From Octopus vulgaris (lineage: Eukaryota), in the NCBI GenBank assembly GCA_951406725.2, contig OX597823.1, forward strand, positions 30,256,001-30,320,000: DNA of 64,000 nt, in the 5' to 3' direction. Position 1 is the stretch's first letter; each line of letters starts with the position of its first letter. Made by a program: the position numbers and the translations under genes. Shown in pieces: positions 11,166 through 61,818 of the stretch. Under the pieces are notes generated by a model that was not told the origin of the DNA, ran no database searches, and saw only the letters and a program-made list of their open reading frames with translations.

Positions 11166-11256
11166 AAAGGTGAGTGTGAAGATGGTCGGTTTGTGTGTGT
11201 GTGTTGGTAGCGTGCGTATGCATGGTAGCGTGTGTGTATGTGGCAGTAAATATATA

Positions 11257-11298
<42 letters not shown>

Positions 11299-11303
11299 TA
11301 TGT

Positions 11304-11363
<60 letters not shown>

Positions 11364-11659
11364 TCAATGAGAATATTATATACTGAATTTATATTGAGTG
11401 CTCAATTGTATCAAAGTATTAATACTATTAAAGTATTTATGTATTTAATACGAGCAATTATATATATTTTATAATATATTATTATTAATATCATGAAATC
11501 AATATTAGAAAATTCTTCAGAAGGATATATACGTGTGTAAAATAATTGTTGAATTAAAAATATAAATATATATATATATAAAACAAATATGTAAATATGT
11601 ATAAGTATAAATATATAATATACATGACATTTTAAAAGTTTTGAATTAAGTTTTTAAAG

Positions 11660-11751
11660 TATCTTACGAACGTTTCGCAGAAGTGCTGTCCCTGTAATGG
11701 AACCCTATATTGATAAGTATTTGTAGACAACTCTTCTGCTCTTCAGAGATA
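11660..11751 (-). ncRNA. Type I hammerhead ribozyme with extended stem II
   Basis: tatct-CTGAAGA-gcagaag...cttctgc-GAAA-cgttcg-TA-agata. 5-bp stem I, perfect 7-bp base of stem II with G10.1-C11.1, GUA triplet. Confidence 0.8.
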
Positions 11752-11888
11752 TAAAATTTGAATTTTATATAATGTATCGAATGGTAGTATTTTATAAATA
11801 TGAAGTAATACTATAAAGTGGTGTTATAGTATTACTTCATATTTTTAAAAGACTACGATTCGATATATTATACAACATTCAAATTTTA

Positions 11889-11980
11889 TATCTCTGAAGA
11901 GCAGAAGAGTTGTCTACAAATGCTTATCAATATAAGATTCCATTATAGGGACAGCACTTTTTCGAAACGATCGTAAGATA
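11889..11980 (+). ncRNA. Type I hammerhead ribozyme with extended stem II (mirror copy)
   Basis: tatct-CTGAAGA-gcagaag...ctttttc-GAAA-cgatcg-TA-agata. Palindromic stem III. Predicted cleavage after 11975. Confidence 0.75.
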
Positions 11981-12014
11981 ATTTAAAAACTTAATTCAAA
12001 ACTTTTAAAATGTA

Positions 12015-12424
12015 CTATCTATATCTATAAAACAGTCCTTGGACGAAAATTGTATGCACATTTTGCTTTGACGGTTAATGACGGCCAAACCGAGGCTAGG
12101 ATCGAGCTGAAAATTGGCAGGGACACTAAATGCGTGGTGAGGATGAGAGCCGCGATGGTTAAAATTCGCAAGCTATAAAGATGTGGTTGCTATGGCAAAA
12201 ATAATGAGTTTTATCTCTCTATAACGACGTTTGACAGCTTCGTCTCTCTGTCACTCTTACTTCCACCACCTCTTCCACTGTACGTCTGTCTGTATCTATA
12301 GAAAGCGTTGACAGCCGCAAAAGTTTAAATATTGCCGCCACGGGTCTTTTAGAACGGTGAATTATTATCGCCCACCACCATCGCACAATCATAACAGATA
12401 TTATTAATCAGATATATTGTGCTA

Positions 12425-12504
<80 letters not shown>

Positions 12505-12627
12505 ATGTATATATATGTGTGTGTGTGTGTGTATAAATATATATATATAATGTATTTATATATATATATATATGTAGACATGTATATATAATGCGTATAT
12601 ATGTACATATTTAATGCGTATATATAA

Positions 12628-12666
<39 letters not shown>

Positions 12667-13374
12667 GTGCATATGTGGTCGGATTGAGCTGAAAATATGC
12701 ACACCTATGTTAAAAGTGCTAGCGAGTTTGCATGGGAACTTTGAGTTTGCTCAATTGAAAGGCATGGCTTCTAGGGCAAAATTCTTCATCTTTTAAAATG
12801 TGGCCCGCTTAGAGCCGAGTGAAATCGCGTTATAATACCGAAACACGTAAAACAATAATAAACTATTTTAATCCCGAGCAAGACTGTGTATATCTGTCTA
12901 ATCTATAAAATGAAGAAGGCGAATGTTGATACAAATTGGATTTTTATGTAAAAAGGGGTCTAAATGAGGCTGGAAACGGATTAAAATTTACAGGAGTGGG
13001 TAACTTGAGGTAAGAAATTGATTTGGAGACGTTTTGGGGGCGCCATAGTGGTTGCTTTGGTGTGAAAACGGGCATTTTATTGATTTTGGGGGACACTTGG
13101 TGGCTTAGATTGGACACCTTTTGTCCGATTTCAATCAAATTTTCAACATGGTATGGTGGAAGCGGATTTGTATTTTGAGCGCGGAAATCTAATTTTTTAT
13201 AAATGGGAGATAGATAGATAGAGAAAGATAGAGAGTAAGAGAAAGCGAGGGAGAGTCCGAGAGAAAGGAGAGAGAAACAAAGAGGGTGAATGTGGCGATA
13301 AGAAACAGAAAGGAAGCAACAGAAAGTAACAACCACACCCTCACGGGCGCATAGAGCGGGTCACTTTAAGCTAG
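12015..13374 (+). mobile_element. Two tandem non-autonomous Helitron-like elements (about 12015-12900 and 12901-13374)
   Basis: Both start with tctataaaa-type ends. First ends cccgagcaagactgtgtatatctgtcta, second ends cgggcgcatagagcgggtcactttaagCTAG followed by T. The block is absent from the mirror arm and has no TSD. Confidence 0.65.
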
Positions 13375-13536
13375 TACATTATATATTTATACCTATACAT
13401 ATTTTTTATATATATTTATATTTTTAATACAACAATTATTTTACACACGTATATATCTTTCTGAAGAATTTTCTAATATTGATTTTCTGATAATAATAAT
13501 AGATCATAAAATATATATAATCGCTCGTGCGTATGT

Positions 13537-13733
<197 letters not shown>

Positions 13734-14237
13734 GTAAATATATATATGTATATATGTATGCATATACATTCACTTCATACACGCCAGCTCAATTTGATTC
13801 GTTCTCAGTCGAAAGACACCTGTTGTTATTTCTTGTTGTTTGTATTCGTAATTTTGTACCATGTTTTTTGTCTTTGTTCTTACAAAGGGGTCTAATGCTC
13901 ATAGCTTATACTTTTTGGTGGGCAACCAGATCGAACCAGATCTCAAGTGTAACTGCCCGAAATGGTCGTGACATCTGGCACTTCACTTCACGAAAGGAGG
14001 CCACGAATGATCCATCTTTTTTTTTCCTGTCCTTCTAATTGTCGTCTCTCTTGTTCACTTTTGAATCGTCTATCTGTCTGAATGTTTTTATTGTCCTCTA
14101 TTGCGTTTTTGTTCCATTTTTATATTTATATATCCATCTGTACATATATATTACTCTACCACTGGTATTTGAGTACTCTTTTTTCCATCTTGTTTCACAT
14201 TTATGTGTTAACTCCGGTATATATATATATATATATA

Positions 14238-15088: not shown

Positions 15089-15655
15089 TTATTACACAGG
15101 GATTTCCTGTTCTTCAACAATTACCACAAAATAATGAGCCAAAATAAATTATATTATATACGGTATTAAGGCAGAGTGCTGGAAGAATCGTTAGCACTCT
15201 GGACGAAATGCTTAGTGGTATTTCACCCGTCGCTACGTTCTGAGTTGAAATTCCACCGGGGTCAACTTTGCCTTTCATCGTTTCGGGATCGATAAATTAA
15301 GTACCAGTTACGAACTGGGGTCGATGTAATCGACTAGCCCCCTCCCTCACAAATTCAGGCCTTGTTCCTATAGTAGAAAGGATTATTACACAGAGATTTC
15401 CTGCTCTTCAACGATTATCACAAAATATTAAGCCAAAATATTATACTTGGTGTTAAGGCGGAGAGCTCGCAGTTTCGTTAGCATGTCGGGCAAAATGTTT
15501 AACGGCTTTACATTCTGAGTTCCAATTCCGCCGATGTTGACTTCGCCTTTCATCCTTTTGAAATATTTACCAGTTGCGTACTGGGGTCGGTGTAATCGAC
15601 TTATCTTCTCCGCCGAACTTTCTGGCCTTGCGCCAAAATTTGAAATCAGTATTAT
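15089..15655 (+). repeat. Tandem duplication of ~80-bp flank plus SINE family A (two units of ~290 bp)
   Basis: attattacacagggatttcctgttcttcaac at ~15089 recurs as attattacacagagatttcctgctcttcaac at 15383. Each is followed by a SINE A. Confidence 0.8.
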
Positions 15656-16124
15656 TCTCAATGGTTTTGTGGTCTGCGCAATTTTGCCCGAGTGTTACGC
15701 CAAGGGAGGTAATAACTCGAATGGAGAAATAGAGAGAAAGACAAGAGGAAGACAGGGGGACCGAGAGATACGAAACAATGAAAAATTAGAAAGAGAAAAC
15801 ACGAGAGAGAGAGAGAGAAGTGGAGAGTCTATATTATTTTGCATTTATGCGTTCAAATCGAAAGCACAGTCGAAATGCTTAACATAATGAAACAGTATCA
15901 CGGTCTATAAGTTTATGCATTAAAGATATATTGATAGCTTGTTAAATAACCAATAGCTGTGGATATTAGAGTTTTATCTTTTATGTGTTCCAGACCCAAG
16001 GCTGTGACATGCTGGGGGCGCCGCCATTGTATATCATTTTCTTACTAGGTTTAAATATTCATCGGAATTATTGGAGTAGACAGATCCATACATCGACAGA
16101 AGGAAAAATATATATGATAGTTAA

Positions 16125-16137
16125 TTAGTTAGTTAGT

Positions 16138-16198
<61 letters not shown>

Positions 16199-16265
16199 GG
16201 ATGGATGGATGGATGGATGGATGGATGGATGAATGGATGGATGGAGATGGATGGATGGATGGATG

Positions 16266-16328
<63 letters not shown>

Positions 16329-16376
16329 GGATGGATGGATGGATGGATGGATGGATGGATGGATGGACGGACGGAC

Positions 16377-16424
<48 letters not shown>

Positions 16425-16509
16425 GGATGGATGGATGGATGGATGGATGGATGGATGGATGGATGGATGGATGGATGGATAGATAGATGGATGGATGGAT
16501 GGATGGATG

Positions 16510-16576
<67 letters not shown>
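16125..16576. repeat. Compound (GATA)n/(GATG)n microsatellite
   Basis: Direct inspection. Confidence 0.95.
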
Positions 16577-16577
<1 letters not shown>

Positions 16578-16761
16578 CGTAAAACAACCCAACATCGGTT
16601 GTCAAGCGGTGGTGGGGACAAACACAGCGCACATGCACGCACACATATATTAATGTTTGCTTTTATGTTCGGTTACAATAAAAACAATTTTTACCGTCCT
16701 ATAATGGCTTAGTTGGCCGAAACTTCGAAGTTAGTAGCAAGGATATACTTGTTTAAGAATA

Positions 16762-16842
<81 letters not shown>

Positions 16843-17200
16843 GCAGGAGGTGGTGGTCCCTGCTGTACTCTTTCACCACTCTTTCTCCCACTCTTTCTTC
16901 TGTTGGCCTGCTCGCTTAGCCAGCGGGGTGGCGTCATTCGAAGGCTAAAACAATGCGAACGCAGTGTGACCAGCGATGTGTAACAACATCTGATGGTCTG
17001 GTCGGTCACGTGATCACGTGATATATATACATATATATACAATTGGCTTTTTTCAGTTTCCGACAACCAAATCCACTCACAAAGCTTTGGTCGGCCCGAG
17101 GTTATAATAGAAAACACTTTACCAAGGTGCCACGCAGTGGGACTAAACACGGAACCATGTGGTTGGGAAGCAAGCTTCTTACCACTAAGCCACGCCTATA
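16577..17200 (-). mobile_element. SINE family B (tRNA head, core ccttgtgagtggatttggtagacggaaactgaaagaagcc, internal microsatellite) with nested insertions
   Basis: Head at 17040-17197, tail piece at 16577-16625, unrelated insert at 16840-17020. Confidence 0.75.
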
Positions 17201-17749
17201 TGTGAATAAGTTGTGTTTTTAAAATTTATCTTTTATTTCTTTAAACTATAAAAAGTATCCCCCATCTTTCAAACATATTAACAGACATCGATTATATTCA
17301 AAAATACAGTTTGAGATTAAATGGTGGGGTTTCAAAAGAACGTTTTTGAAATTTTTTGCTTGTGTTTAACATATTAACATCATGCTTTCGAACATGCTGA
17401 CTTACACCGTGGAATTTCTACGGATCCGCTACTATTATTTCACCATCTGTAATTCCTTACAAATGTTTAGATCCAATCTAAATTCCGAAACAAAATGACA
17501 ACTAAAACACATGTAACTTCAGCTGCGCCAATTCCAACATCTGCCGTTTCCAGGGAAAATTCCAAGCAACGGAATTTCCCAATATGTTACGGTTAAAACT
17601 ATCAGTTTTCCTTCGTCTACTGAATTAACCTCCAAATCTCAACAAAAAAAAAATGATTGCATTTAGCCATTATTCATTTCGTTTCTTTGTATTCCAAGCA
17701 GAATGGCTTCATCTTTTTTTTATCTTTGTAACTATGGTCTCTAAATATT

Positions 17750-17982
17750 TATTTCTTTATTGCCCACAAGAGGCTAAACATAGAGGGGACAAACAAGGAC
17801 AGACAAAGGGATTAAGTCGATTATATCGACCCCAGTGCCTAACTGTCATTTATTTAATCGACCCCGAAAGGATGAAAGGTAAAGTCGACCACGGCGGAAT
17901 TTGAACTCAGAACGTCGCGACGGGCGAAATACCGCTAAGCATTCCGTTCAGCAAGCTAACAATTTTTCCAGCTTGCTGCCTT
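17750..17982 (-). mobile_element. SINE family A
   Basis: Core and tRNA-like head in reverse orientation. Confidence 0.85.
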
Positions 17983-18308
17983 TTCTAAATTAGTTTTGAT
18001 ATCAAAGGGACGAAATGGTCTCTAAATATTTCAAACATACTAAACTAAGGCTAAGTACTTTGTACTTTAGAATCATGCAAAAGTAGATTTTCCAACCTCC
18101 AACAATTCATTAACTGTGCCGAGAGAATTTCGATTTACAGGCATCTGATTCCAACAAAATTTAAAATATTCCAAGCCTATAAACTTTTCAAATACGTAAC
18201 CCTTACATCTTTTTTTCTGAGCCAGCGCTAATCCTTCCTCCAAAATATATTACAAATCGTTAGCTTATCTTATTTATCCATTTACTCTGAAGATTAAGCT
18301 CAACTATA

Positions 18309-19112
18309 AAGCTGGCAGAATCGTTAGCACGCCGGGCGAAATGCTTAGCGGTATTTCGTCTGCCGCTACGTTCTGAGTTCAAATTCCGCCGAGTTCGACT
18401 TTGCCTTTCATCCTTTCGGGGTCGATTAAATAAGTACCAGTTACCAGTTAACCCGTTTGTCTGTCCTTGTTTGTCCTCTCTGTGTTTAGCCCCTTGTGAG
18501 TAGTAAAGAAATACGTATTTCGTCAGCCGCTACGTTCTAAGTTCAAATTCCACCGAGGTCGACTTTGCCTTTCATCCTTCCGGGGTCGATAAGTTAAGTA
18601 CCAGTTAGGCACTGGGGTACATATAATCGACTTAATCCCTTTGTCTGTCCTTGTTTGTCTTCTCCATATTTAGCCCCCTGTGGGCATTAAAGAAATAAGA
18701 AACGTTAGCACGCCGAGTAAAATGTTTAGCGGTCTGTCTTTACGTTCTGAGTTCAAATTCCAAAGGCCGACTTTGCCTTTCATGCTTTCGGAGTCTATAA
18801 ATTAAGTACCAGTTGCGTACTGGAGTCGATCTATCGACTGGCCCCTCCCCCACAATTTAGGGCCTTGTGCCTTGAGTAAAAAAAAGGATACATCACTATA
18901 GATATTGCTTTCAAATTTCGGTACAAGGACAACAATTTCGGGGGAGGGGTAAGTCAATTAAGTCAACCCCACTGTTCAACTGGTGCTTATTCTATGAACC
19001 TCGGAAGGTAACGTCGGCCCCGGCGGCATTTGAACTCAGAACGTAAAGTCGGAAGAAATTCCGTTAGCCCTTTTTTTTCCGGCGTGGTAACGGTTCTGCC
19101 ATTTCACCACCT
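18309..19112. mobile_element. Cluster of SINE family A: three tandem plus-strand units, then one inverted copy (18905-19112)
   Basis: Repeated ctgagttcaaattcc..gactttgcctttcatcc cores. The last copy is reverse complement. Confidence 0.85.
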
Positions 19113-20585: not shown

Positions 20586-21371
20586 CAGACAAATAGACAG
20601 ACAGACAGATCGATAGATCGATAAATATAGATTCCTGTACTAAGTTACCTCGTTCACTGCTAAACTATATAATAAAATACATGAAATATAATAAGGCGGC
20701 CACAGTCCATTCAAAATACAAAAATTAATCTAATTTAAATTCTTTTCTACTCTAGGCAAAGGCCCGATATTTTGGGTGGGAGGGGCTTAGTCAATTCGAT
20801 CGACACTAGTACGCAACTAGTACTTAATTTATCGACTCTGGAATGACGAAAGGCAAAGTCGACCTCGGCGGAATTTGAACTCAGAACGTAGCGGCAGACG
20901 AAATACCGCTAAGCGCCCCACCCGGCGCGCTAAAATTCCAAGTATTATCACTTATTTTGTATCATCCTACACCCAGTTTAGTAATACTATTGTTTATATT
21001 CGTCGCCATTCTACTACAGTCACCTTGACCTCACAAAATCAACCAAGTCGATCTCACCACACCTTTTTTTTTTATCCTTCCTCATTTCTATACAATTCGG
21101 ACAATATATTTACAAACGTGCCCCTCCCTTATTTGTCCTCTTTCTATCACCAGCTCCTATGACTCTAAGCTTTCTATTTTTAGCTTCTTTTGTTGTCCTA
21201 TCCCCTTCTGGTCTATTCATAATCATCATTTACGCAATACTATTTTTAGCCACCACACCATAAAGACAGTACAACATATATATATATATTCTTTTCTTTT
21301 TTTTCTTTTATTTCTTTCCGTCATTTGACTGCGGCCATGCTGGGGCACCACCTTTTAGTCGAGCAAATATA

Positions 21372-21456
<85 letters not shown>

Positions 21457-21541
21457 TAGAGAGAGAGGGAGAGAGAGAAAGATTACAGTGCAATACAGCT
21501 GTTGTTACCTCCTCTCTCTCTCTCTCTCGCTATATATATAC

Positions 21542-22097
<556 letters not shown>

Positions 22098-22335
22098 CTA
22101 TATTGTTTATCTTTATTATTTTTGGATTTTCCTTTACTTTCACTCTGCGGCGCTTGTATTCACAAAATTTAGACTATTCTTTAAGTCACAAATTGGGTCA
22201 CACGAATGACATGATATGTTTGGAAAGAGATCATAGAGCAATGCCTTATATATCCCATTTAACTCATTTCATTCTTACACCTATTTATTATACTCGGTCT
22301 ACAAACACCAGTTTGCACAATCTAGGTATTTTTAT

Positions 22336-22573
22336 TGTTGTATTTGGGGATGGCCATATTATTATTATTTTTATTTTATTTATTTTTTTGCCAAATAAAC
22401 ACATGCACTTTGTATTTGTTCTTCACTCGTTTATTACTGTTCTTATTTTAAGTCATGTCCATTGTCCGGAAATCTTTCGTCACACACCTGAGACCTCTTC
22501 AGCGACACTTTTCGTTTTCGTGTGTGCACTTGTTCCACTTACCCCATTTTGCTCTTCTAAGATGTCTATTTAG
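22336..22573 (-). mobile_element. ~240-bp hammerhead-bearing insertion (Penelope pseudo-LTR-like)
   Basis: Absent from the mirror arm, where ctaggtatttttatttcccatata is contiguous at ~24424-24446. Confidence 0.7.
22463..22507 (-). ncRNA. Candidate minimal type I hammerhead ribozyme
   Basis: tgtcg-CTGAAGA-g-gtc(tcaggtgtgt)gac-GAAA-gatt-TC-cggaca. Stem I has a single bulge. Confidence 0.6.
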
Positions 22574-24738
22574 TTCCCATATAATCTCGATGTAAAAAAA
22601 AAAACATTATTTCATTATATAACATTTCACGTAATTTTTATCTTTCACTCTTTTTAACTATTTACCTATCCAACCATTTATTCATGTCCAAATTTTCGTT
22701 AATCCGACTGTATCTCTTCTTCCTGATTAATTCCAAAATTTGAAACAAGGCCAGAAACTTCGGAGACGACGAGAGTCGATTATTTTCCCTAATTAATAAT
22801 TAATAAAATCCTAATTAATAAAATCTTTAAAGAGTTTGTTCCGAACACCTTTCATCCCTGAAGAGATGATAAAATAAGAATCAGCTTAGCACTGGCATCA
22901 ATGTAATTGAATTCCTCCTTCCCTCAAAATATCTGGCATTGTACCAAAATTCGAAAGGATATTTTATTGTTTTAAAATATTTGAAGGATTATTTTGTTTT
23001 ATCAGTTGAGTGTCTTAAAAGCGATTTTGTTTTCTTAATCGAAGTCTGATTTCTTTATACTCCAACGTTTTTCACTTTGCCTTTGACTTAATTCCATCAT
23101 TACATTAATGCCTTGACCTAATTTTAGCAAACACTTATTCCCTAATTTATTGGCTGGCCAACGGTGTCAATGGAGGAGGTACGCCTATTACATTGGCCAC
23201 AATGTTCAACTGGTATTTATTTAATTGACCCCCGAAAGGATGGAAGGCAAAGTTGACCTCGGCGTATTTTCAACAGAGAAAGATGAAGGGAAATGCTGTT
23301 CAGCATTATGCCCGGTACAGTAACATTTCTGCCACCTCACCGCCTTACCCCAAATTTATTGATCAATAACATAATATCAATTATTTTCGTAATTAATTTA
23401 AGTAATTTCTTACCTGTTTACTCTTCTTCACTAATATTTATTCCATTCATCTTTTATAATTAAATGTGTTAAAATGTCCGAACTTGCATTAAAATTCTTC
23501 TCTTCTGATATGAAAACAATTTACAACGCTACTTAATTACTTCCTTTTATTCAGAAATCTAACTTCACTTTATGGAACATCTTAGATTTTTTAATTCTCC
23601 TCTCACGTTCTGTCTTTACCAAGACTCCCGCTCACATTTCTCTTTTCTGCTCTTATTGATCAATAAATTTGGGGTAAGGCGGCGAGGTGGCACAAATGTT
23701 ACTGCTTAACGGCATTTCCCTTCATCTTTATGTTCTCAGTTGAAAATACGCCGAGGTCAACTTTGCCTTCCATCCTTTCGGGGTCGATTAAATAAGTACC
23801 AGCTGAACATTGTGGTCAATGTAATAGGCGTACCTCCTTCATCGATACTGTTGGCCTTGTGTCAAAGTTCGAAGCCAATAAATTAGGGAATAAGTGTTTG
23901 CTATAATTAGGTTAAGGCATTAATGTAATGATGGAATTAAGTCAAATGCAAAGTGAAAAACGTTGGAGTATAAAGAAATCAGACTTCGATTAAGAAAACA
24001 AAATCGTTTTAAAGACAATCAGCTGATAAAACAAAATAATCCTTCAGATATTGGAAAAAGAAAATATTTTAAAACAATATAAGATCCTTTCGAATTTTGG
24101 TACAATGCCAGGCATTTTGAGGGAAAGAAGAGCCAGTGCTAAGCTGATTCTTATTTTATCAATGTCTTCAGGGATGAAAGGTGTACTAATTAGGATTTTA
24201 TTAATTATTAATTAGAAAAAATAATCGACTTACGTCGTCTCCGATATTTCTGGCCGTGTTTCAAATTTTGGAATTAATCAGGAAGAAGAGATACAGTCGG
24301 ATTAACGAAAATTTGGACAGGAATAAATGGTTGGATAGGTAAATAGTTAAAAAGCGTGAAGGATAAAAATAACGTGAAATGTTAAATAATGATATAATGC
24401 TTTTTTTTTTTTAAATCGAGGTTATATGGGAAATAAAAATACCTAGATTGTGCAAGTGGATGTTTGTAGATCGAGTATTATAAATAGGTATAAGAATGAG
24501 ATGAATTAAATTGGATATATAAGGCATCATTCTATGATTCTTTTCCAAAGATATTATGTCATTTCTGTGACCCAAATTGAGAATTAAGGAATAGTCTAAC
24601 TTTTGTGAACATAAGCGCTGCAGTATGAAAGTAAGAGAAATTCAGAAATAATAAAGATAAACAATGATTATATTTGTATGTATGTAGAGAGAAGGTAACA
24701 ACAGCTATACATATTGTACTGTAATTTCTCTCTCTCAC

Positions 24739-24773
<35 letters not shown>

Positions 24774-24822
24774 CATACATACATACATACATACATACAT
24801 ACATACATACATTCATACATAC

Positions 24823-24869
<47 letters not shown>

Positions 24870-24950
24870 ACTGTAATTTCCAAAATTCGAATAATTCACA
24901 ATTCTGAAACATGCCTGGTTTCAATGTTTTGGATATGAAATTGTGAACCC

Positions 24951-25055
<105 letters not shown>

Positions 25056-25074
25056 ATAGTAGTAGTAATAGTAA

Positions 25075-25130
<56 letters not shown>

Positions 25131-26120
25131 AACGTACAAGCATTGGTGGTATGACTAAGATAGGTGAACGGTTTTTATGGTGCGGTAGCTAAAAATAGTA
25201 TTGCGTAAATGATGATTATGAATAGACCAGAAGGGGATAGGACAACAAAAGAAGCTAAAAATAGAAAGCTTAAAGTCATAGGAGCTGGTGATAGAAAGAG
25301 GACAAATAAGGGAGGGGCAGCGTTTGTAAATATATTGTCCGAATTGTATAGAAATGAGGAAGGATAAAAAAAAAAGGTGTGGTGAGATCGACTTGGTTGA
25401 TTTTGTGAGGTCAAGGTGACTGTAGTAGAATGGCGACGAATATAAACAATAGTGTTACTAAACTGGGTGTAGGATGATACAAAATAAGTGATAATACTTG
25501 GAATTTTAGCGCGCCGGGTGGGGCGCTTAGTGGTATTTCGTCTGCCGCTACGTTCTGAGTTCAAATTCCGCCGAGGTCGACTTTGCCTTTCGTCATTCCA
25601 GAGTCGATAAATAAAGTACCAGATGCGTACAAGTATCGATCGAATCGACTGGGCCCCTCCCACCCAAAATATCGGGCCTTTGCCTAGAGTAGAAAAGAAT
25701 TTAAATTAGATTAATTTTTGTATTTTGAATTGACTGTGGCCGCCTTATTATATTTCATGTATTTTATTATATAGTTCTCATTTGGAGGGAATATTTAGCT
25801 GTGAACGAGGTAATTTAGTGGTGACATTTAGTAGAGATGACCCGGAAGTTGTTCCTCTTCGATTACTATAGCAAACAGCAGTTGCTTTCTTCAACTGAAT
25901 ACATGTCGTTGGTTGGTTAAAATTACCCAAATACGACAACTTTAACACGAAATAACTTCTAAAATACGAAATTTTGTCAAAAATGTTGAAAGTGAACCGA
26001 GTTGAGCGTGAGAAATTACACCAGTATACCAAGTTTCAAACTGTTTAGTTAATTAAAAAAAATAATTAAAAGATCTGTGAGCGAAACTAAACAGATCCCG
26101 AAAATAACTGATGTTAAATA

Positions 26121-26218
<98 letters not shown>

Positions 26219-26373
26219 GAGTGACTGTGTGGTAAGTAGCTTGCTAACCAACCACATGGTTCCGGGTTCAGTCCCACCGCGTGGCATCTTGGGCAAGTGT
26301 CTTCTGCTATAGCCTCGGGCCGACCAAAGCCTTGTGAGTGGATTTGGTAGACGGAAATTGAAAGAAGCCTGTC

Positions 26374-26433
<60 letters not shown>

Positions 26434-26646
26434 ATGTGTGTGTATATGTTTGTCTGTGTTTGTCCCTCTAGCATTGCTTGACAACCGATGCTGGTGTGTT
26501 TACGTCCCCGTCACTTAGCGGTTCGGCAAAAGAGACCGATAGAATAAGTACTGGGCTTACAAAGAATAAGTGCCGGGGTCGATTTGCTCGACTAAAGGCG
26601 GTGCTCCAGCATGGCCGCAGTCAAATGACTGAAACAAGTAAAAGAG
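26219..26646 (+). mobile_element. SINE family B, full length, within (GATA)n
   Basis: A-box and B-box-like head (gtgtggtaagtagc, ggttcagtcc), core and tail. Confidence 0.92.
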
Positions 26647-26709
<63 letters not shown>

Positions 26710-32827: not shown

Positions 32828-33404
32828 TGCCGGCGGCCGTTGCAGACGATTCTTGTTTATCAACGATATAAATACGAGTGATTTTACGCACCATGAGTCC
32901 TTATGAGAGATCTCCTCGAGGTAAATAACGCACCTAATAGAGGTTTTCGAATACAACATCCAAGTGAAGTAGATCAGAATCACCCTGTTTTTCTTTAGTT
33001 CCCCAAAAATTTCTTCGTCGCCATATTATTTTGATTAGAATACTTAATAGCATACAAATATATTTTAAAGCCGCTATATTAGTTTATTTTTAATTATTTA
33101 TCTTTGTTTTTGTTTTTTAATTAATAACGCTCACGCTTGTAAACAAATATATTTAAATTCAGTCTTACTTGATATGTGATTCTGAATATACATTAAAAAA
33201 TTTTACTGTGGAGATTCTTAGCCAGAAAACAATGAATTTTTATAATTTTATTATGGTCAACAATTGAAACATTTGTTTGTGATCTATATTTAATATTTAT
33301 TACTTATTATATTGTAATATCTTGTATTGTGTTATATTATTATAAGAATATAATATAATATATTATGGTAATAAATTTTAAATTTTAAGTTTTGAATTGC
33401 CAAT

Positions 33405-34858
33405 TGAAATGCCAGTACACCGCTGCCAAGACGCCTCAGAACAAGTCTGGCATACAATTGTAAAACTCGTAGGGCAGACCATCCAGACCCGGCGATTTGT
33501 CTCTCGAGCATCCTGCCATCGCATCCCTCACTTCCGACGCCGTGATGGCACCTTTGCAGCACTCTTCCTCTCTTGCCGAGAGTCGTGGCAGGCTGTGCAG
33601 GTAGGCACTGAAGTCCACCCTGCGTTCACGATCACCACTCTTCCCGTACAGTCGGGCAAAATGCCGCTGAAATGCCTCGCACATTTTGCTGGGCACGAGC
33701 AATTCGCGTCCTTGTTAGTCTAACAGAGACCGAATGGTGGCTTTGTTGACCTGCGGCGCCTCCGCCACCCGGGCCTCTCTCGCGGCTCCAACACCTTCCA
33801 TCCTTAGAGCACGCATCCTAGCCCTGACAGCACACCCTTCGTGTTTTGCGTTGAAGTGTTGGTCGAGGGTCAACCTCGCCGCCAAAACGTCGGATGCCGC
33901 TTCTTATTGCCTCTTCTAACTTCTTAACTAACTCACCCTCTACTCTAATTCTATCTACGGCTAGTGCCTTACTATATCTTATTGCTTCTACTTTTACTGC
34001 TCTCTTGAGGGCGAACCACCATTTGTTGTTGACAATGGTTCCCATCAAAGCCCTCTTTACTAACGTGCTGATTCTGTCTCTGAAAACCTGTCTGGACGGG
34101 AAAGATGCGTTTAATTTCCAGTAACCGGGACTCTGCCTATGTGCCTTATCTAAGTCTAGCGTACACGTCACGAATTTGTGATCCGTGTAGCTGACTGTGT
34201 GGAATTTTGGACATCCTAAACTATCCCTATCTACTGTCCTACACAGTATCCTATCTAGATACGATCTCGACGACCCACTGCGGTTGCTCCATGTCTACGT
34301 TGGTGCATTTTGGTGGTCGAGTCGGTACCTGTCAGACAGCTGGAATCGCCTGAGCCACTCTCTGAGGCATTTGCATTCCCGTCTGTTTTTGTCTCTCCCC
34401 ACATAGTCTAGATGCGTGTCCAAGGTAGCATTCCAATCCCCCACTAAAAGTAAAGGACGAGACGTTCCCAGGAATACTTCTAGACGTCGAAAGAAGTCCG
34501 GCCGACCTGTTAAAGGTGGTGCATAGACTGCTAGGAGTCGAAAAGCGCACTCATGGCTGCCGTCGACATCCAGGACAACCAGCCTACCCTCCGGGTCTAT
34601 GAATATCGTCTTGACATTGAGATCCAGACTCTTGTGAAAAAGTACTGCCGTGCCACTACCGCTCATCCTCAGCAGACAGGGAGAAAAATAAATGTTAAGC
34701 TGTCCGCCAAACATGGACTTTAGGGCCCGTGGTTCATGGAGTCTGGTCTCACTTATGGCTATGATTCCCAAATCGTGTGACTTGATGTCATTTAGGAGGT
34801 ACCCTTGTTTCCAAGGAGACCCCAAGCCACGCGCATTCACACAACCAATCTTGACCAT
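33405..34858 (-). pseudogene. L1/Tx1-type ORF2 N-terminal part (APE endonuclease and linker), truncated at the start of the RT
   Basis: CVNARGL, AISETRL, AVYAP, VGDWNA, SYLDRI, TDH, GYWKLN and KSPGLDGLPYEFY. Stop at 34295, frameshift near 33895. Confidence 0.92.
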
Positions 34859-34936
34859 GATCCTATTGAGATGTGTGCTTTAAAAACACAAAAAGAAAGG
34901 TACAGAGAGTACACTGATGCGTCTTGGAGAAGGTTT

Positions 34937-37071
34937 TTATAAAGTTTTTTCGATAAGTATTTTTGCCCCCCCCCCCAACCACATTTGGAAAGAGGGCTTT
35001 GAGTGTGTGGTGTTGTGTTTGTGTGATGTGTAGTATCTTGATGTGTTTCGGTGGTGTAGTGCGTGGATGGTTGTTAGTTTTGAAATCATCTTCACAGATG
35101 CTTGTGTGGCTGTGATGTACTCCATTAGTTTTGAGTTTTTTGTGTCTATCGCAGATAGCATTGTGTGTGTTTTTGTGGTGTTGGTGCTGGTTTGGTTGTG
35201 CAAGGGGCTTTCAGGGTTTACATATCTGCCTGCTTTGGTTGCAGTTGCTTGTTTGTTTTTTTATCTTTTTCTTTTACCTCCGGTGGCTATTTGCCATTCT
35301 GTTGCGCTTTCATCGTTATACGAAATGTCTGACGAATCAGAAAGGGGTAAGGGCAAAGCATCTGGATCTGTTTGTGTGATTGTAGGTATTATTGTGGTGT
35401 GTGGTGTGTGTGTTGTTGAGTGATTTGGGAGTAATAATTGTCTCTTCTTCTGGGTGCTTGTCTTCTTGGTAGTTATTCTTGGTGTTGGAGTTGGCTTATC
35501 TTTAGTTGTTGTTGTTAGTGGTGTTCTTTCTGTTCTTGGCGCAGGTGGTGGTGTTGTTTGGTTGGGTTGGTTCGTTCGTGGTTGCTTTTCTTGCATTTCC
35601 GTGTATAGCTGCTTGATCAGTCGTGCATACTGTGATGTGGGTAACAATGCTGGCTTTTTTGGTTTTTCCTGTGGCTATTGTTGTTGTTGTTGTTGTTGTT
35701 TCGCGGCAGATTTGCAATCCTTTTTAAGGTATGCTTCACTGCCGCATATATAGCAGCGTGGTCGTCTGCCCTCGACCACTACATACAATTTGTGGTCTTC
35801 CGATAGATGTATATGGGTGGGTATTGTATTTATGGAGCCTTGATTAATCTGGAGAAGAATCTCCAGTCTCTTTCCCACACAGTTTTTCTGTTCTGAAACA
35901 GCAATTTGTAGGCTATTTACATCCGCCATTTCGACACATATGGCTGATGTTACCCATAGTGTGTCTGCTATTGGAGGAACATTGTTGATTATAACTTTTG
36001 TTACCCTCTGACCAAGGTAGCTGGGTATCAATATTAGGTCGTCTGAATGAAGAGTTAGCGTTGAGAATTGTTTTGCTAACTTTTCATTTTGAAATACCAC
36101 ATGTACATGAGCAAACTTGTGCCACCAAGTCACATACTCTTTGCACCCCCAAATAGGGCGAAGGCATTTTTCAATTTTGTCTGTATTTGCTTTTTTTTGA
36201 CTTTTGGTTGTGCTGTTTATTATTTTATATATAATTGTTTTGTTTTTTTGCGTCATCTAGTATATGTTGTGGTACATTTAATGCTTTTGTATCTTTTATC
36301 TGCTGTGCAGTAAACGATACTATTGTCTTTTTTGTTTTATCGCCTCGGCGAAATTTGTTGTTATTTTGTTATTGTTGTTGCTGGTGGTGGTGTTGGTGGC
36401 AGATGCGACAGTTGTTGGTACATTTGGTGTATGGTTGTTGATTGTGTAACTAGGAAGCGGTGGAAAATTGTTTACATAATTTGCCCCAACGTTTGAACAA
36501 ATTTTGGCAATTCGTTTGGTGGCCGCGACTTTTTCTTTCTCTCCTTCAGTTGTTGGTGGTGGCAAAGGCTGGAGGGAATTGTTGTTATTGTTGTTATTGT
36601 CGTTCTTGGTGGTGGCGGTGGTATCGGTAGCAGGGGAGGCAGCCGTAGCAGCAGATATTGAAGTGGTGGCGTTGGTATTGACGATATGGTCTTCGGTGGC
36701 GGTGATGGTGAATGGCCTTGCGACCTTGGTTTTGTTGTTGTTGTTGCTGTTGTCGTTGGTGATGGTGTCGGTAGCAGAAGAAGCAGTTGTATAGCCGAAG
36801 CCGCCGTGGTGGTGGTGTCGGTGTTGATGGTGGAGTCATTGGTGGAAGTGATGGTGGATGGCCTGGGGACCTTGGTTTTGTTGTTGTTGCTGTTGTTGAT
36901 GCTGATGGTGGTGGTGGTGGTGGAGTTAGTGGCCAGGTTCAACGAATAGTGGCGGGAAACCTTGCCCTTTTGTTTCTGTGGCTTTGCTGGCGTCACGCTT
37001 GACTTGCGCGCTGGCTTTGTGGTGACCAGTAACGATTTTTGAAAATAAATATGGCTAAAATCAAACCACAA
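34937..37071 (-). pseudogene. L1/Tx1-type ORF1 (Thr/Pro-rich low complexity, RRM-like part, zinc knuckle), disrupted
   Basis: VVVEGRRPRCYICGSEAYLKKDC (CX2CX4[H>Y]X4C) in ORF 35675-36256. Lies directly upstream of ORF2 on the same strand. Confidence 0.75.
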
Positions 37072-37590: not shown

Positions 37591-37648
<58 letters not shown>

Positions 37649-37731
37649 GGTCCCGGGTTGATTCGGGGTTAACCACAGTAAGTAAGGTACTCAATACATA
37701 GCAGAGTAAAATTAATTTATTATATAGAAGG

Positions 37732-37782
37732 AGCTTCTACAGGACTAGTACTGTTTCATTCAAGAGAAATCTTCAGGAAGCT
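37732..37782 (-). ncRNA. Type I hammerhead ribozyme (left tip of palindrome)
   Basis: agcttc-CTGAAGA-tttctcttgaat-GAAA-cag(tactagtc)ctg-TA-gaagct. Perfect 6-bp stem I, 3-bp stem II, GUA triplet. Confidence 0.8.
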
Positions 37783-38164
37783 ATTTAACAAGAATTGTAT
37801 TAGCATTTATACATTTAGGCAGGTTTAAAGGAGTGGTGGTGGGGGACTTTTTTGGGGGTAGGCATAGCGCAAAATATCATACTTGGGGGAGTGGTCAAGG
37901 AGTCAGTGGTAAGTTAGATGAAAGAATAGATAAATAAAAAAATAAAATAATAAAATTAAAAAAAAAAAATTAAAAAAAAAAATAAATAAATAAAAAAAAA
38001 AAATAATAAAATAATAAAATAATAAAAAATAAAAAATATATATAAAAAATATATATATAAAAAAATATATATATAAAAAAAGGGGGGATAGAGTTATAGG
38101 TAAATAAGGAGATTCTCACTTATACCTATACACATATGTATACGTATCTACACACATATATATA

Positions 38165-38206
<42 letters not shown>

Positions 38207-38518
38207 TATACATATATACACATATACATACATATCTACATACACACATACATACACCCGCCCACATATACAAATTTATACACATGCCCATGCATATACC
38301 TGTCTACACATACACACACGTATATATGCATACACTCACTCCCATGCATGCACGCATACACACATGTATATATATACACACGACCACACATACATATATA
38401 CACAGAAAAATATATATTCATACGCACATACACTCATGCACACACAACACACCTAGTTCCCTATATACACATATTTACACCTATATATACATACACCCAC
38501 ATACACATATGTACATAT

Positions 38519-38550
<32 letters not shown>

Positions 38551-38649
38551 CACGCATACATATATATACATGTGTGCACATACATACATATACACATATA
38601 CATACACACACACATACACATGTGTACCTATACATACCTACACATACAC

Positions 38650-38694
<45 letters not shown>

Positions 38695-39115
38695 CCAATA
38701 CAGGCCCATTCCCTAATTTTAATTTTATTATCTTCATTTATTACTTTTGTTATCTTTGATCGCTAGAGCTAAGGATCCTGGCTATGGCAGCATGTCCATT
38801 TGTCTGTCTACTAGAAGGCAAGTACTCATTCCCGCACGCACACTCATTAGCACGTACATTCACCCATTCGTACACTCATACACATACACGTACGCACGTG
38901 TTATATTCATACATACAAACATCTACATACGTTCACGTATATACACATACGTACTGTACCTACAGATCTGTGTCTACACTTTAGGAGGCTAGTCTATACA
39001 TATACACCAATAAACATACATATATATATATATATACACATATACATACACACACACACATATACTCCTACATACAGATACATACCTATATATATATACA
39101 TATATATACATATAT

Positions 39116-39153
<38 letters not shown>

Positions 39154-39356
39154 ATACATACACACACACACATATATACACACACATACATACATATATA
39201 TACATACACAAACATACATACACACATATATATATATATATATCACACATACACACACATACATACATATACACACAAACACATACATACGTATACATAC
39301 ATACATACATCCATACATCCATATTACATGTATTTATATGCATACACACACCCCCA

Positions 39357-39391
<35 letters not shown>

Positions 39392-39887
39392 TCACACATA
39401 CATATACAAATATACGCACACACATACATACATACATGTATACGCATACACGCACATACACATATACATGCGTACCCATACACGTGCACACACGCACGTG
39501 CATCCATATATATACACACACACACATATATACACGTGTGCAAGCATACATACATACTCATACACGCACACATACTTACATATACATATATGCACACACT
39601 TACACACATATATACATACACATATACATGCATACGTACATATATGCATACATACACATACACGCACATACACATATACATGCGTACCCATACACGTGCA
39701 CACACGCACGCGCATCCATATATATACACACACACATATATATGTGTGCAAGCATACATACATACTCATACACGCACACATACTTACATATACATATATG
39801 CACACACTTACACACATATATACATACACATATACATGCATACATACATATATGCATACATACACACACGCGCACTCATATATATAT

Positions 39888-39921
<34 letters not shown>

Positions 39922-40021
39922 CATATATACACATACATATACATACACACATACATATACATACACATACATGTGTATGTGTATGTGTATGTATATGTAT
40001 GTGTGTATGTATATGTGTGTA

Positions 40022-40077
<56 letters not shown>

Positions 40078-40566
40078 TGAGTGCGCGTGTGTGTATGTAT
40101 GCATATATGTATGTATGCATGTATATGTGTATGTATATATGTGTGTAAGTGTGTGCATATATGTATATGTAAGTATGTGTGCGTGTATGAGTATGTATGT
40201 ATGCTTGCACACGTATATATGTGTGTGTGTGTATATATATGGATGCGCGTGCGTGTGTGCACGTGTATGGGTACGCATGTATATGTGTATGTGCGTGTAT
40301 GTGTATGTATGCATATATGTACGTATGCATGTATATGTGTATGTATATATGTGTGTAAGTGTGTGCATATATGTATATGTAAGTATGTGTGCGTGTATGA
40401 GTATGTATGTATGCTTGCACACGTGTATATATGTGTGTGTGTGTATATATATGGATGCACGTGCGTGTGTGCACGTGTATGGGTACGCATGTATATGTGT
40501 ATGTGCGTGTATGCGTATACGTGTATGTATGTATGTGTGTGCGTATATTTGTATATGTATGTGTGA

Positions 40567-40605
<39 letters not shown>

Positions 40606-40823
40606 TGGGGGCGTGTGTATGCGTATAAATGCATGTAAGTATGGATGTATGGATGTATGTATGTATGTATGTATACGTATGTATGTGTTTGTGTGTATAT
40701 GTATGTATGTGTGTGTATGTGTGCATATATATATATATATATATGTGTGTATGTATGTTTGTGTATGTATATATATGTGTATGTATGTGTGTGTATATAT
40801 ATGTGTGTGTGTGTATGTATGTA

Positions 40824-40854
<31 letters not shown>

Positions 40855-41277
40855 ATATATGTATATATATGTATATATATATAGGTATGTATCTGTATGT
40901 AGGAGTATATGTGTGTGTGTGTATGTATATGTGTATATATATATATATATATGTATGTTTATTGGTGTATATGTATAGACTAGCCTCCTAAAGTGTAGAC
41001 ACGAATCTGTAGGTACGAGTACGTATGTGTATATACGTGAACGTATGTAGATGTTTGTATGTATGAATATAACGCGTGCGTACGTGTATGTGTATGAGTG
41101 TACGAATGGGTGAATGTACGTGCTAATGAGTGTGCGTGCGGGAATGAGTACTTGCCTTCTAGTAGACAGACAAATGGACATGCTGCCATAGCCAGGATCC
41201 TTAGCTCTAGCGATCAAAGATAACAAAAGTAATAAATGAAGATAATAAAATTAAAATTAGGAATGGGCCTGTATTGG

Positions 41278-41324
<47 letters not shown>

Positions 41325-41744
41325 GTGTATGTGTAGGTATGTATAGGTACACATGTGTATGTGTGTGTGTATGTATATGTGTATATGTATGTATGTGCAC
41401 ACATGTATATATATGTATGCGTGTATATGTATATATATATATGTACATATGTGTATGTGGGTGTATGTATATATAGGTGTAAATATGTGTATATAGGGAA
41501 CTAGGTGTGTTGTGTGTGCATGAGTGTATGTGCGTATGAATATATATTTTTCTGTGTATATATGTATGTGTGGTCGTGTGTATATATATACATGTGTGTA
41601 TGCGTGCATGCATGGGAGTGAGTGTATGCATATATACGTGTGTGTATGTGTAGACAGGTATATGCATGGGCATGTGTATAAATTTGTATATGTGGGCGGG
41701 TGTATGTATGTGTGTATGTAGATATGTATGTATATGTGTATATA

Positions 41745-41788
<44 letters not shown>

Positions 41789-42089
41789 TATATATATGTG
41801 TGTAGATACGTATACATGTGTGTATAGGTATAAGTGAGAATCTCCTTATTTACCTATAACTCTATCCCCCTTTTTTTATATATATATTTTTTTATATATA
41901 TATTTTTTATATATATTTTTTATTTTTTTTTTTTTTATTTATCTATTCTTTCATCTAACTTACCACTGACTCCTTGACCACTCCCCCAAGTATGATATTT
42001 TGCGCTATGCCAACCCCCAAAAAAGTCCCCCACCACCACTCCTTTAAACCTGCCTAAATGTATAAATGCTAATACAATTCTTGTTAAAT

Positions 42090-42140
42090 AGCTTCCTGAA
42101 GATTTCTCTTGAATGAAACAGTACTAGTCCTGTAGAAGCT
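42090..42140 (+). ncRNA. Type I hammerhead ribozyme (right tip of palindrome)
   Basis: Identical to the left copy. Predicted cleavage after 42134. aataaa lies 11 nt after the motif. Confidence 0.8.
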
Positions 42141-42184
42141 CCTTCTATATAATAAATATATATATATATATATATATATATTCT

Positions 42185-60530: not shown

Positions 60531-61818
60531 TTGGGTTGTCCGGAAAGTTCGTGTCGATTTTTAAAGAACAGAAAAATGTCAATAAATACTTGCCATTACA
60601 TACATTTTTAATCAACCAAAAATGAACCATTTTGTTACACAATGCGTCTCCATCTTTCCTTTAACTTGAAAATACCCTCTTCCCAGAAATGAGGTGGTTT
60701 TATGGCAAAGAATTCATCAAGGTATCTTTTTACGTCATCCAAGATATTGAAATTTTTACCATTATGACTATTCTGCAGAGACCTGAATAAGTGGAAATCC
60801 GAAGGAACAATATCTGGTGAACATAGAGGGTGTGATAACACATTCCAGCCGAGCAGCAGCAATTTTTGTCTGGATCCCAAAGAAACGTGCGGTCTCGCAT
60901 TATCATGTTGGAAAACAACATTCTTCCGGTTAGCCAATTCTGGACGTTTCTCTTGAATTGCTGCTTTTAACTCGTCCAGTTGTGTGCAGTATTTCTCAGA
61001 ATTAATTGTCTGGTTACTTGGGAAAAGCTCATAGTACAGAATTCCTTTCCAATCCCACCAGACAGAAAGCAAGACTTTTTTAGGATGAAGAACCGCTTTT
61101 GGGGTGGTTAAGGGTGGCTCATGTCGCTTACTCCAGGATCGCTTTCTCTGAACATTTCGGTAGATAATCCATTTCTCATCACCTGTCACAATTTGCTTTA
61201 AAAAAGGTGCGTTTTCATTCCGTTTATAAAACGAATCACAGATGGAAATGCGATCCAAAAGGTTCTTCTCACTCAACTCATGTGGTACCCAAACATCGTA
61301 GCGCTTTGTGTACCCAAGCTTTACCAGGTGCTCATGAACGACGGATTTTGATAGGTTGAGGCTTTCTGCCAATTCTTGGGTTGTGAAATGTGGGTTATTC
61401 TCAATTAATGACTTGATTTGGTCATCATCTGTAGTGGATGGTCTGTCTGGTCGCTCTTTATCAATAAGGCTACATCCTCCAGCTCGGAACCTTGCAAACC
61501 ACTTCCGTAAAGTTCTTTCGGATAAAGAAACATCACCGTAAACTGTGCATATTTCTTTGGTTGCTTGTGAGGCATTTTTCCCTTTACGGAAAAAGAAAAG
61601 CATCAAGTGCCGAAAATGAACTTTCTTATCTTCTATTTTAAATGGTTACAGAATTAAAATAGGTTGTAGGAGCATAAACCTTCTTCCACGAAAAGATAGC
61701 TTAAACTGTGCTCTAAATGGAGGTGGAGTCAAATCCTATTTTATGAACTCAACCATGTTCTAAAATAAGTCGAAAGGTAAGCTACTATAAATCGGCACGA
61801 ACTTTCCGGACAACCCAA
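60531..61818 (-). mobile_element. Full-length mariner transposon (1288 bp), probably mellifera-subfamily-like
   Basis: 30-bp TIRs ttgggttgtccggaaagttcgtgYcgattt with one mismatch. TA TSDs at 60529-60530 and 61819-61820. Confidence 0.96.
60635..61606 (-). CDS. Mariner DD34D transposase, nearly intact
   Basis: WVPHEL, TGDEKW, HDNARPH and CSPDIVPSDFHLF. Presumed original start reads ATA (61634-61636), and the TAA stop appears ~9 codons early. Confidence 0.85.
   Translation of the reverse strand: MMLFFFRKGKNASQATKEICTVYGDVSLSERTLRKWFARFRAGGCSLIDKERPDRPSTTDDDQIKSLIENNPHFTTQELAESLNLSKSVVHEHLVKLGYTKRYDVWVPHELSEKNLLDRISICDSFYKRNENAPFLKQIVTGDEKWIIYRNVQRKRSWSKRHEPPLTTPKAVLHPKKVLLSVWWDWKGILYYELFPSNQTINSEKYCTQLDELKAAIQEKRPELANRKNVVFQHDNARPHVSLGSRQKLLLLGWNVLSHPLCSPDIVPSDFHLFRSLQNSHNGKNFNILDDVKRYLDEFFAIKPPHFWEEGIFKLKERWRRIV

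Follow-up and report, generated by a model that had tools for sequence, protein, structure and literature searches.

Penelope-like elements (PLEs) are the closest described systems to the locus reported here. In the passages of PMC8557442 on which we draw, the general traits of PLEs include a 5' end that bears an inverted, 5'-truncated copy, hammerheads in the pLTRs and a bias towards microsatellites, and the tail measures 30-40 bp and is often found at one end only. Inverted pLTRs and 3' extensions are used as curation cues (PMC8969392, in part). Head-to-head is the commonest inverted arrangement according to the relevant sections of PMC3846280, where palindromes at the junctions are taken as self-priming. 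PLE hammerheads, as described in part of PMC4209133, are minimal type I motifs with a helix I of 4-5 bp, a helix II of 7-8 bp and a palindromic helix III; pairs of them lie on opposite strands, 100-700 bp apart, and their cleavage is low and dimer-dependent. PAc extends both target strands in vitro, and the tail equals the distance between two RT start sites (PMC11167929, excerpts). In the portion of the supplement to PMC13282606 used here, 190 PLE families together account for 6.83% of the genome of O. vulgaris.

The palindrome that we describe lies in a 64,000-nucleotide stretch of Octopus vulgaris DNA, which we call the window. It is PLE-like on every structural test that we ran; the assignment is structural, a coding parent with an RT plus GIY-YIG ORF being the class-defining feature. 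The architecture has already been published for PLEs, and the locus is a decaying transposon remnant. We consider it highly probable that two 5'-truncated pLTR copies were left head to head when a PLE, or a non-autonomous derivative of one, inserted once into a TG/TA microsatellite.

Pen2 and Pen3 of Adineta vaga, which are EN+ PLEs (parts of PMC3846280; schematic in PMC8557442), share with our locus the head-to-head 5'-truncated copies, the junction palindrome, the tail at one end and the simple-repeat targets. Our locus differs from them in having no ORF between or beside the repeats, a tail of 89 nt rather than 30-40, and an unreadable target-site duplication (TSD). The minimal hammerheads of metazoan PLEs, as far as the excerpts of PMC4209133 describe them, resemble ours in the CUGANGA/GAAA/UH core, the 5-bp helix I, the basal 7 bp of helix II, the G10.1-C11.1 pair and the palindromic minimal helix III. 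Opposite-strand pairs 100-700 bp apart are known from Schistosoma (same excerpts). In contrast to those motifs, helix II of ours is lengthened by another stem of 7 bp with a large loop at its apex, and positions 9 and 10.1 have no unpaired base between them. The 63-nt spacer between the core halves compares with 7-17 nt in one published descriptor, 35-50 nt in 'half cores' and 35-nt loops in a plant PLE. This spacer and the 89-nt tail are the departures from what is in print.

In Poseidon PAc from Anolis carolinensis the hammerhead precedes two alternative 3' ends, which delimit the tail, an arrangement that our element probably shares, and the targets are AT-rich, as here; the PAc ORF starts at stem II, whereas no long frame follows the ribozyme in our element (PMC11167929, excerpts). 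Hydra-clade PLEs (Penelope-13_HM, Hydra-1_Obim) share the (TA)n preference and are listed as similar also in the distance of the hammerhead from the 3' end (about 90-430 nt); unlike ours, their helix II is short and has a small loop (parts of PMC8557442, Files S1-S2). For Penelope-13_HM the same supplement lists hammerheads on both strands, owing to a 5' copy in inverted orientation. The octopus Naiad and Hydra families in the part of that supplement used here do not match the palindrome family. Identity with Naiad_Obim, Ovul and Omin was rejected, as their consensus 3' ends look unlike ours by eye and the motif look-ups gave no matches.

Geometry of the palindrome and the inserted element

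A palindrome with arms of about 370 bp around a 7-nt loop at 11817-11823 had been proposed from a reading of the sequence alone, and two methods recovered it. An independent repeat finder returned the inverted repeat 11618-11816/11824-12022 with a 7-nt spacer. Alignment with the insert removed paired 11450-11816 with 11824-12017 plus 13375-13528, that is, arms of 367 and 348 nt. The arm alignment left 89 nt unpaired on the left arm only (11361-11449), close to the one-sided tail of about 90 nt in the earlier reading; the outer edge of the tail sits in a TG repeat, where its placement is uncertain by 1-2 nt. The spacer is closed by a 2-nt microhomology of 11815-11816 with 11824-11825, which may have served as a primer. 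The features are collected in Table 1.

Table 1. Features of the palindrome and its flanks, in window coordinates.
Feature	Position	Strand	Evidence
(TG)n microsatellite, left target flank	11255-11360		sequence
89-nt 3' tail, part of the repeat family, left arm only	11361-11449	-	arm alignment, contig depth
Left tail-bearing 5'-truncated copy, pLTR-like; takes in the loop and the next two bases	11450-11825	-	arm alignment, contig ends
Type I hammerhead motif, left arm	11660-11751	-	core 11746->11665, predicted cut after 11665
7-nt spacer, part of the left copy's parental sequence	11817-11823		repeat finder, contigs
Right inverted copy without tail, 5' part	11824-12017	+	arm alignment
Type I hammerhead motif, right arm	11889-11980	+	core 11894->11975, predicted cut after 11975
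1357-bp non-autonomous Helitron-like insertion	12018-13374	+	ends, left arm as empty site
Right copy, 3' part; end equivalent to 11450	13375-13528	+	arm alignment
TG/TA microsatellite, right target flank	13529-13735		sequence

The target site is microsatellite or AT-rich on both sides of the palindrome. The microsatellite flanks had also been recognised from the sequence; the left one is (TG)n and the right one a TG/TA repeat. With simple repeats on both flanks, a TSD is unreadable. The ORFs in the arms are short or of low complexity and none is convincing; outside the ribozyme, the GC content of the arm is 14-19%.

With the insert removed, the arms are identical at 322 of 348 positions and differ by 14 transitions, 12 transversions and 3 indels (K2P 0.079). 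These 26 substitutions and 3 indels, together with the 1357-bp insert, part the two arms and bear out the earlier judgement that the palindrome is old and real and no read artefact. A calibration of JC 0.09 to 25 My is quoted in PMC13282606 (in part); if it applies, and if gene conversion has not intervened, the arms would have separated some 11 My ago.

The insert begins with 5'-TC, ends with CTAG-3' and lies between A and T (A/TC ... CTAG/T) without a duplication. The ends that define Helitrons are 5'-TC and CTRR-3' at an A/T target with no TSD (PMC4778049, excerpt). We name the insert Helitron-like because its 3' hairpin is weak, the subterminal structure at 13337-13361 amounting to about -4 to -5 kcal/mol. 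There is no second copy within the 64-kb window. The sequence-only reading had placed a later Helitron insertion of 1.36 kb in one arm; the insertion is present, but it starts at 12018 and not at 12015, the earlier start being 3 nt early. The Helitron-like element entered the right arm after the palindrome had formed.

Two predicted hammerheads on opposite strands

The outward-facing hammerheads of the earlier reading agree in their coordinates with ours, and the core and helices I-III follow in order. Helix I ends at 11751/11660 (-) and 11889/11980 (+). Both arms have a 5-bp helix I, the CUGAAGA and GAAA core segments, a helix III of minimal length and a cut site at GUA, and helix II consists in both of 7 bp, a 1x1 loop, another 7 bp and an apical loop. 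Helix II is unusually long, the core halves being separated by 63 nt. In the left motif the first core half occupies 11746-11740 and GAAA 11676-11673; its helix III palindrome is lost through a change at 11670 that is private to this copy, the palindromic base being present in 97-100% of the family depth. In the right motif, with its first core half at 11894-11900, the 8-nt self-complementary segment of helix III is intact, and two changes, at 11960 and 11962, weaken helix II. A second CTGAAGA heptamer occurs at 11515-11521 (-), in the 3' part of both arms, either by chance or as a decayed second ribozyme; it has no downstream GAAA partner and no descriptor match.

Our hammerhead descriptor, composed after the motifs had been seen and therefore favourable to them, gave four matches in the window: the two described here and two in an element at 37646-42157. 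It gave none in 5000 dinucleotide shuffles of the arm and none in 60 shuffles of the window. Rfam returned no hammerhead family among the 11 matches at E<=10 in 11600-12020, nor for the whole window among the 150 of 220 matches listed, probably because helix II is long. Its miRNA matches, with scores under the gathering cutoff, were rejected as hairpin or microsatellite noise.

All 13 core bases agree between the arms, a zero difference that is uninformative (p=0.36). Mismatches between the arms number 7 in the 92 positions of the hammerhead and 19 in the 256 elsewhere (Fisher p=1.0): the hammerheads decay at the same rate as the rest of the arm, with no extra conservation. The open-core folds lie 3.5 and 3.8 kcal/mol over the minimum energy; minimum-energy folds of homodimers were set aside, as they do not single out the active dimer. 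As the motifs are on opposite strands, no single RNA has both and they cannot act jointly. Folding of a read-through RNA, whichever strand it comes from, puts the core in a duplex with the antisense arm, and 88% of 11600-12017 is paired (about -250 kcal/mol). The predicted hammerheads are most likely dead at this locus.

Across the family to which the arms belong (see below), the common stem variants at 11660, 11677 and 11686 preserve pairing by one-sided changes, according to column-wise counts over the 40 of 49 variant rows listed. The minor variants at 11668, 11676 and 11731 (0-11%) disrupt pairing among the variant rows listed (40 of 49). No two-sided stem change is visible among these 40 of 49 rows, in which column counts cannot reveal covariation.

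An abundant repeat family in public contigs

Twenty of the 24 sequencing runs listed match part of the stretch, none with half its words; they span 14 studies and six organism labels. Contigs of four of the 24 runs were placed on 11361-11870 at 80% likeness. Three DNA runs with three organism labels contributed 940, 795 and 418 contigs matching arm and tail. Over large parts of arm and tail the depths sum to 10,000-100,000, compared with about 15-125 in single contigs listed, and over the tail they sum to 36,000-72,000 in one of these runs (X1); summed depth is not a copy number, and one run may be the source of the window. The arm and tail form an abundant repeat family. The zero depth at 11548-11615 is a gap made by the repeat filter, and a further run, guessed to be RNA (X17), has five contigs on the tail only and is uninformative on expression.

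In X1, the depth falls about 100-fold towards the centre of the palindrome, from 117,868 at 11735-51 to 1,254 at 11820-36. Divergence instead of truncation could explain this drop, and at 11793 there are loose ends that resemble diverged homologues. Contig ends continue beyond 11825 in at least eight contigs of X1, six of X4 and three of X10, among the 20 of 240 loose-end rows listed, and they share a non-palindromic, AT-rich continuation. Since contigs extend beyond 11825 in all three DNA runs, the left copy's parental sequence includes the loop and the two bases that follow it. The palindrome centre is the truncation point of this copy and not a fixed hairpin. The possibility of one hairpin centre at the same position across copies, raised by the earlier reading, fails here, as contigs in all three DNA runs pass through the loop into non-palindromic sequence. 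No contig joint is listed at the centre, so the junction has not been seen in another individual.

Two of the six contig joints listed connect opposite strands, both at 11450/11451. These joints, X1 11451->11510 and X10 11450->11514, come from two organism labels and lie at near-identical places. They suggest other short inverted copies, or copies inserted into one another, at the end of the short arm. Of the loose ends at 11459-11471, two read into TA/TG repeats and one is a possible diverged homologue. These observations lend moderate support to 11450 as a second recurring 3' end of the family; contigs cannot tell truncation from divergence, and the end at 11361 is at the border of the stretch compared.

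The left arm departs from the family at 11 near-fixed sites. The right arm has the family base at eight of these, shares the rare base at two (11660 and 11723) and has neither at one; the polymorphic sites 11677, 11700 and 11795 were set aside from this comparison. The shared rare alleles indicate that both arms derive from one template, although subfamily structure or gene conversion could also account for them.

Origin of the palindrome and its neighbours

The single insertion that we favour would have proceeded as follows. The PLE RT/endonuclease would nick the microsatellite, and cDNA would start at the end of the RNA tail (11361). Reverse transcription would cross the hammerhead and halt at 11825, about 80 nt beyond the ribozyme core. 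The 3' end of the cDNA could then fold back on 2 nt across the 7-nt loop and copy itself as far as the second family end (the equivalent of 11450), which would leave the tail single. The + strand of the window would thus represent one molecule, made up of cDNA, loop and copy. Such a fold-back of first-strand cDNA accounts for two copies that lie head to head and are truncated at nearly the same point, for their common alleles and for the presence of the loop on the tailed arm, and we put the chance that this was the route somewhat above even. Alternatively, both nicked target ends may have primed cDNA on one RNA, from two start sites, with the products joined by microhomology. This twin priming explains better why the short arm ends at a family end, and we rate it a little below even. 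Under the single-insertion model the hammerhead would be a passenger of the pLTR; by analogy, the parent hammerhead probably cuts a tandem precursor RNA as a dimer, via its palindromic helix III.

The element at 37646-42157 follows the same PLE plan. Its hammerheads, 37776->37738 (-) and 42096->42134 (+), are identical between the arms and have a short helix II, in the layout of the Hydra-clade motifs in the part of PMC8557442 File S2 used here. Its tail, about 68 nt long, is confined to the left arm, and (TA)n lies on both sides. As its outer 215 bp are 99.5% identical, it is much younger, and its tail indicates that long tails may be common in this genome. The two elements had been described as dissimilar, in line with our blastn comparison; the best local alignment is a 38-nt T-rich stretch. 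An alignment score against the 37646-42157 arm that exceeded those of all 300 mononucleotide shuffles was discounted because of this stretch. The sequence-only reading had further claimed that ribozyme-tipped fold-backs arose independently in at least two families and point to a recurring mechanism. We agree with the recurring mechanism; a new architecture of independent origin is not supported, the layout being that of published head-to-head PLE pLTRs. The two families would share it through a common mechanism of transposition, the PLE hammerhead lying in the 3' part.

A third, nested palindrome occupies 20663-25776, with outer 612 bp that are 97% identical, inner arms of 83-84% and a spacer of about 283 nt at 23370-23652. 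A match of about 26 nt in inverted orientation was noticed by eye just beyond it (20637-20662 versus 25795-25820). The descriptor finds no hammerhead in this palindrome, which implies that inverted duplications here arise by other routes too. The window also contains an open 336-aa Mos1/mariner transposase frame at 60635-61645 (-) (Transposase_1, E=1e-28; HTH_48) and, at 33400-36300 (-), a fragmented LINE-like remnant in which 34295-34879 encodes an AP endonuclease domain (Exo_endo_phos, E=1.6e-07). Pfam searches on 10 of the 147 window ORFs returned only these AP endonuclease and mariner transposase domains, and none of a PLE; no RT or GIY-YIG ORF could be linked to the palindrome from this set. 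Dispersed SINE-like repeats of 100-230 bp and dense microsatellites occur window-wide (for example at 15168-19101, 21668-22098 and 26219-26654), as is typical of octopus genomes.

Among the other explanations, we regard as unlikely a stand-alone hammerhead retroelement of about 450 nt, retrozyme- or SINE-like and without a PLE ORF of its own, for which the fold-back would be a local accident of integration. The steep fall in family depth, within about 90 nt upstream of the hammerhead, the low GC content outside the ribozyme and the lack of a convincing ORF are all compatible with such an element, and retrozymes have been proposed as PLE derivatives (bioRxiv 10.64898/2026.07.22.740005, in part). 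Non-LTR retrozymes, as presented in excerpts of PMC7229834, are also short, non-coding and low in GC, with a type I hammerhead and a weak helix III. However, they are defined there as head-to-tail tandem repeats, whereas our locus is head-to-head with a tail. Moreover, copies of our family extend upstream of 11825, and none of the six contig joints listed goes back, although rare forms drop out of contigs.

Slightly less probable still is an ordinary genomic inverted duplication, by replication or repair fold-back, of a solo copy already in place. The shared rare alleles and the 2-nt microhomology would fit it equally, and the nearby 20663-25776 palindrome shows that such duplications occur. 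Against it, the duplicated segment consists of element sequence only and stops at 11450, the site of both opposite-strand joints listed, and the unrelated element at 37646-42157 also has a one-sided tail.

Taken in its strong form, the idea of the sequence-only reading would amount to a palindromic mobile unit, foldback/MITE-like or passing through a hairpin intermediate, whose ends are defined or released by outward ribozymes. The symmetry, the ribozyme on each arm and the recurrence of the plan in a second window family speak for such a unit, but the centre is not fixed in the family and the ends are asymmetric. The ribozymes are on opposite strands, with their cores paired to the antisense arm in either read-through RNA; each has a lesion and neither extra conservation, and their cut sites lie 215-304 nt inward of the ends. 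We consider this explanation very improbable. Perfect fold-backs are a known long-read artefact, but an assembly or read artefact is practically ruled out by the substitutions, indels and insert between the arms and by the family bases in the right arm where the left differs.

The single PLE insertion therefore remains our preferred reading, and the family that it involves is undescribed in the literature that we searched; Repbase, Dfam, the O. vulgaris library and the bioRxiv supplements may contain it. Look-ups of short motifs gave no matches in the portions of the supplements to PMC8557442 and PMC13282606 used here, the former with six motifs (five from this element and one from the 37646-42157 element). 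Pattern scans of metagenome contigs and viral contigs returned no loci.

A palindrome whose two arms each bear a hammerhead is the signature of a PLE, and the present case shows that a high-copy family with a long-helix-II hammerhead escapes standard searches. The clean junction, with its parental loop, 2-nt microhomology and tail on the same arm, could help to show how the inverted repeats and tails of PLEs form. A bolder generalisation, which we think doubtful, is that this is an abundant PLE family with an active extended-helix-II hammerhead missed by Rfam and descriptors, and that in its many short head-to-head insertions the spacer always lies on the tail-bearing arm. If true, some PLE lineages called hammerhead-less or 'half core' may have hammerheads, and the spacer rule would be direct genomic evidence that the inverted ends of PLEs arise when first-strand cDNA primes itself, a point on which the PLE cycle is not yet settled.
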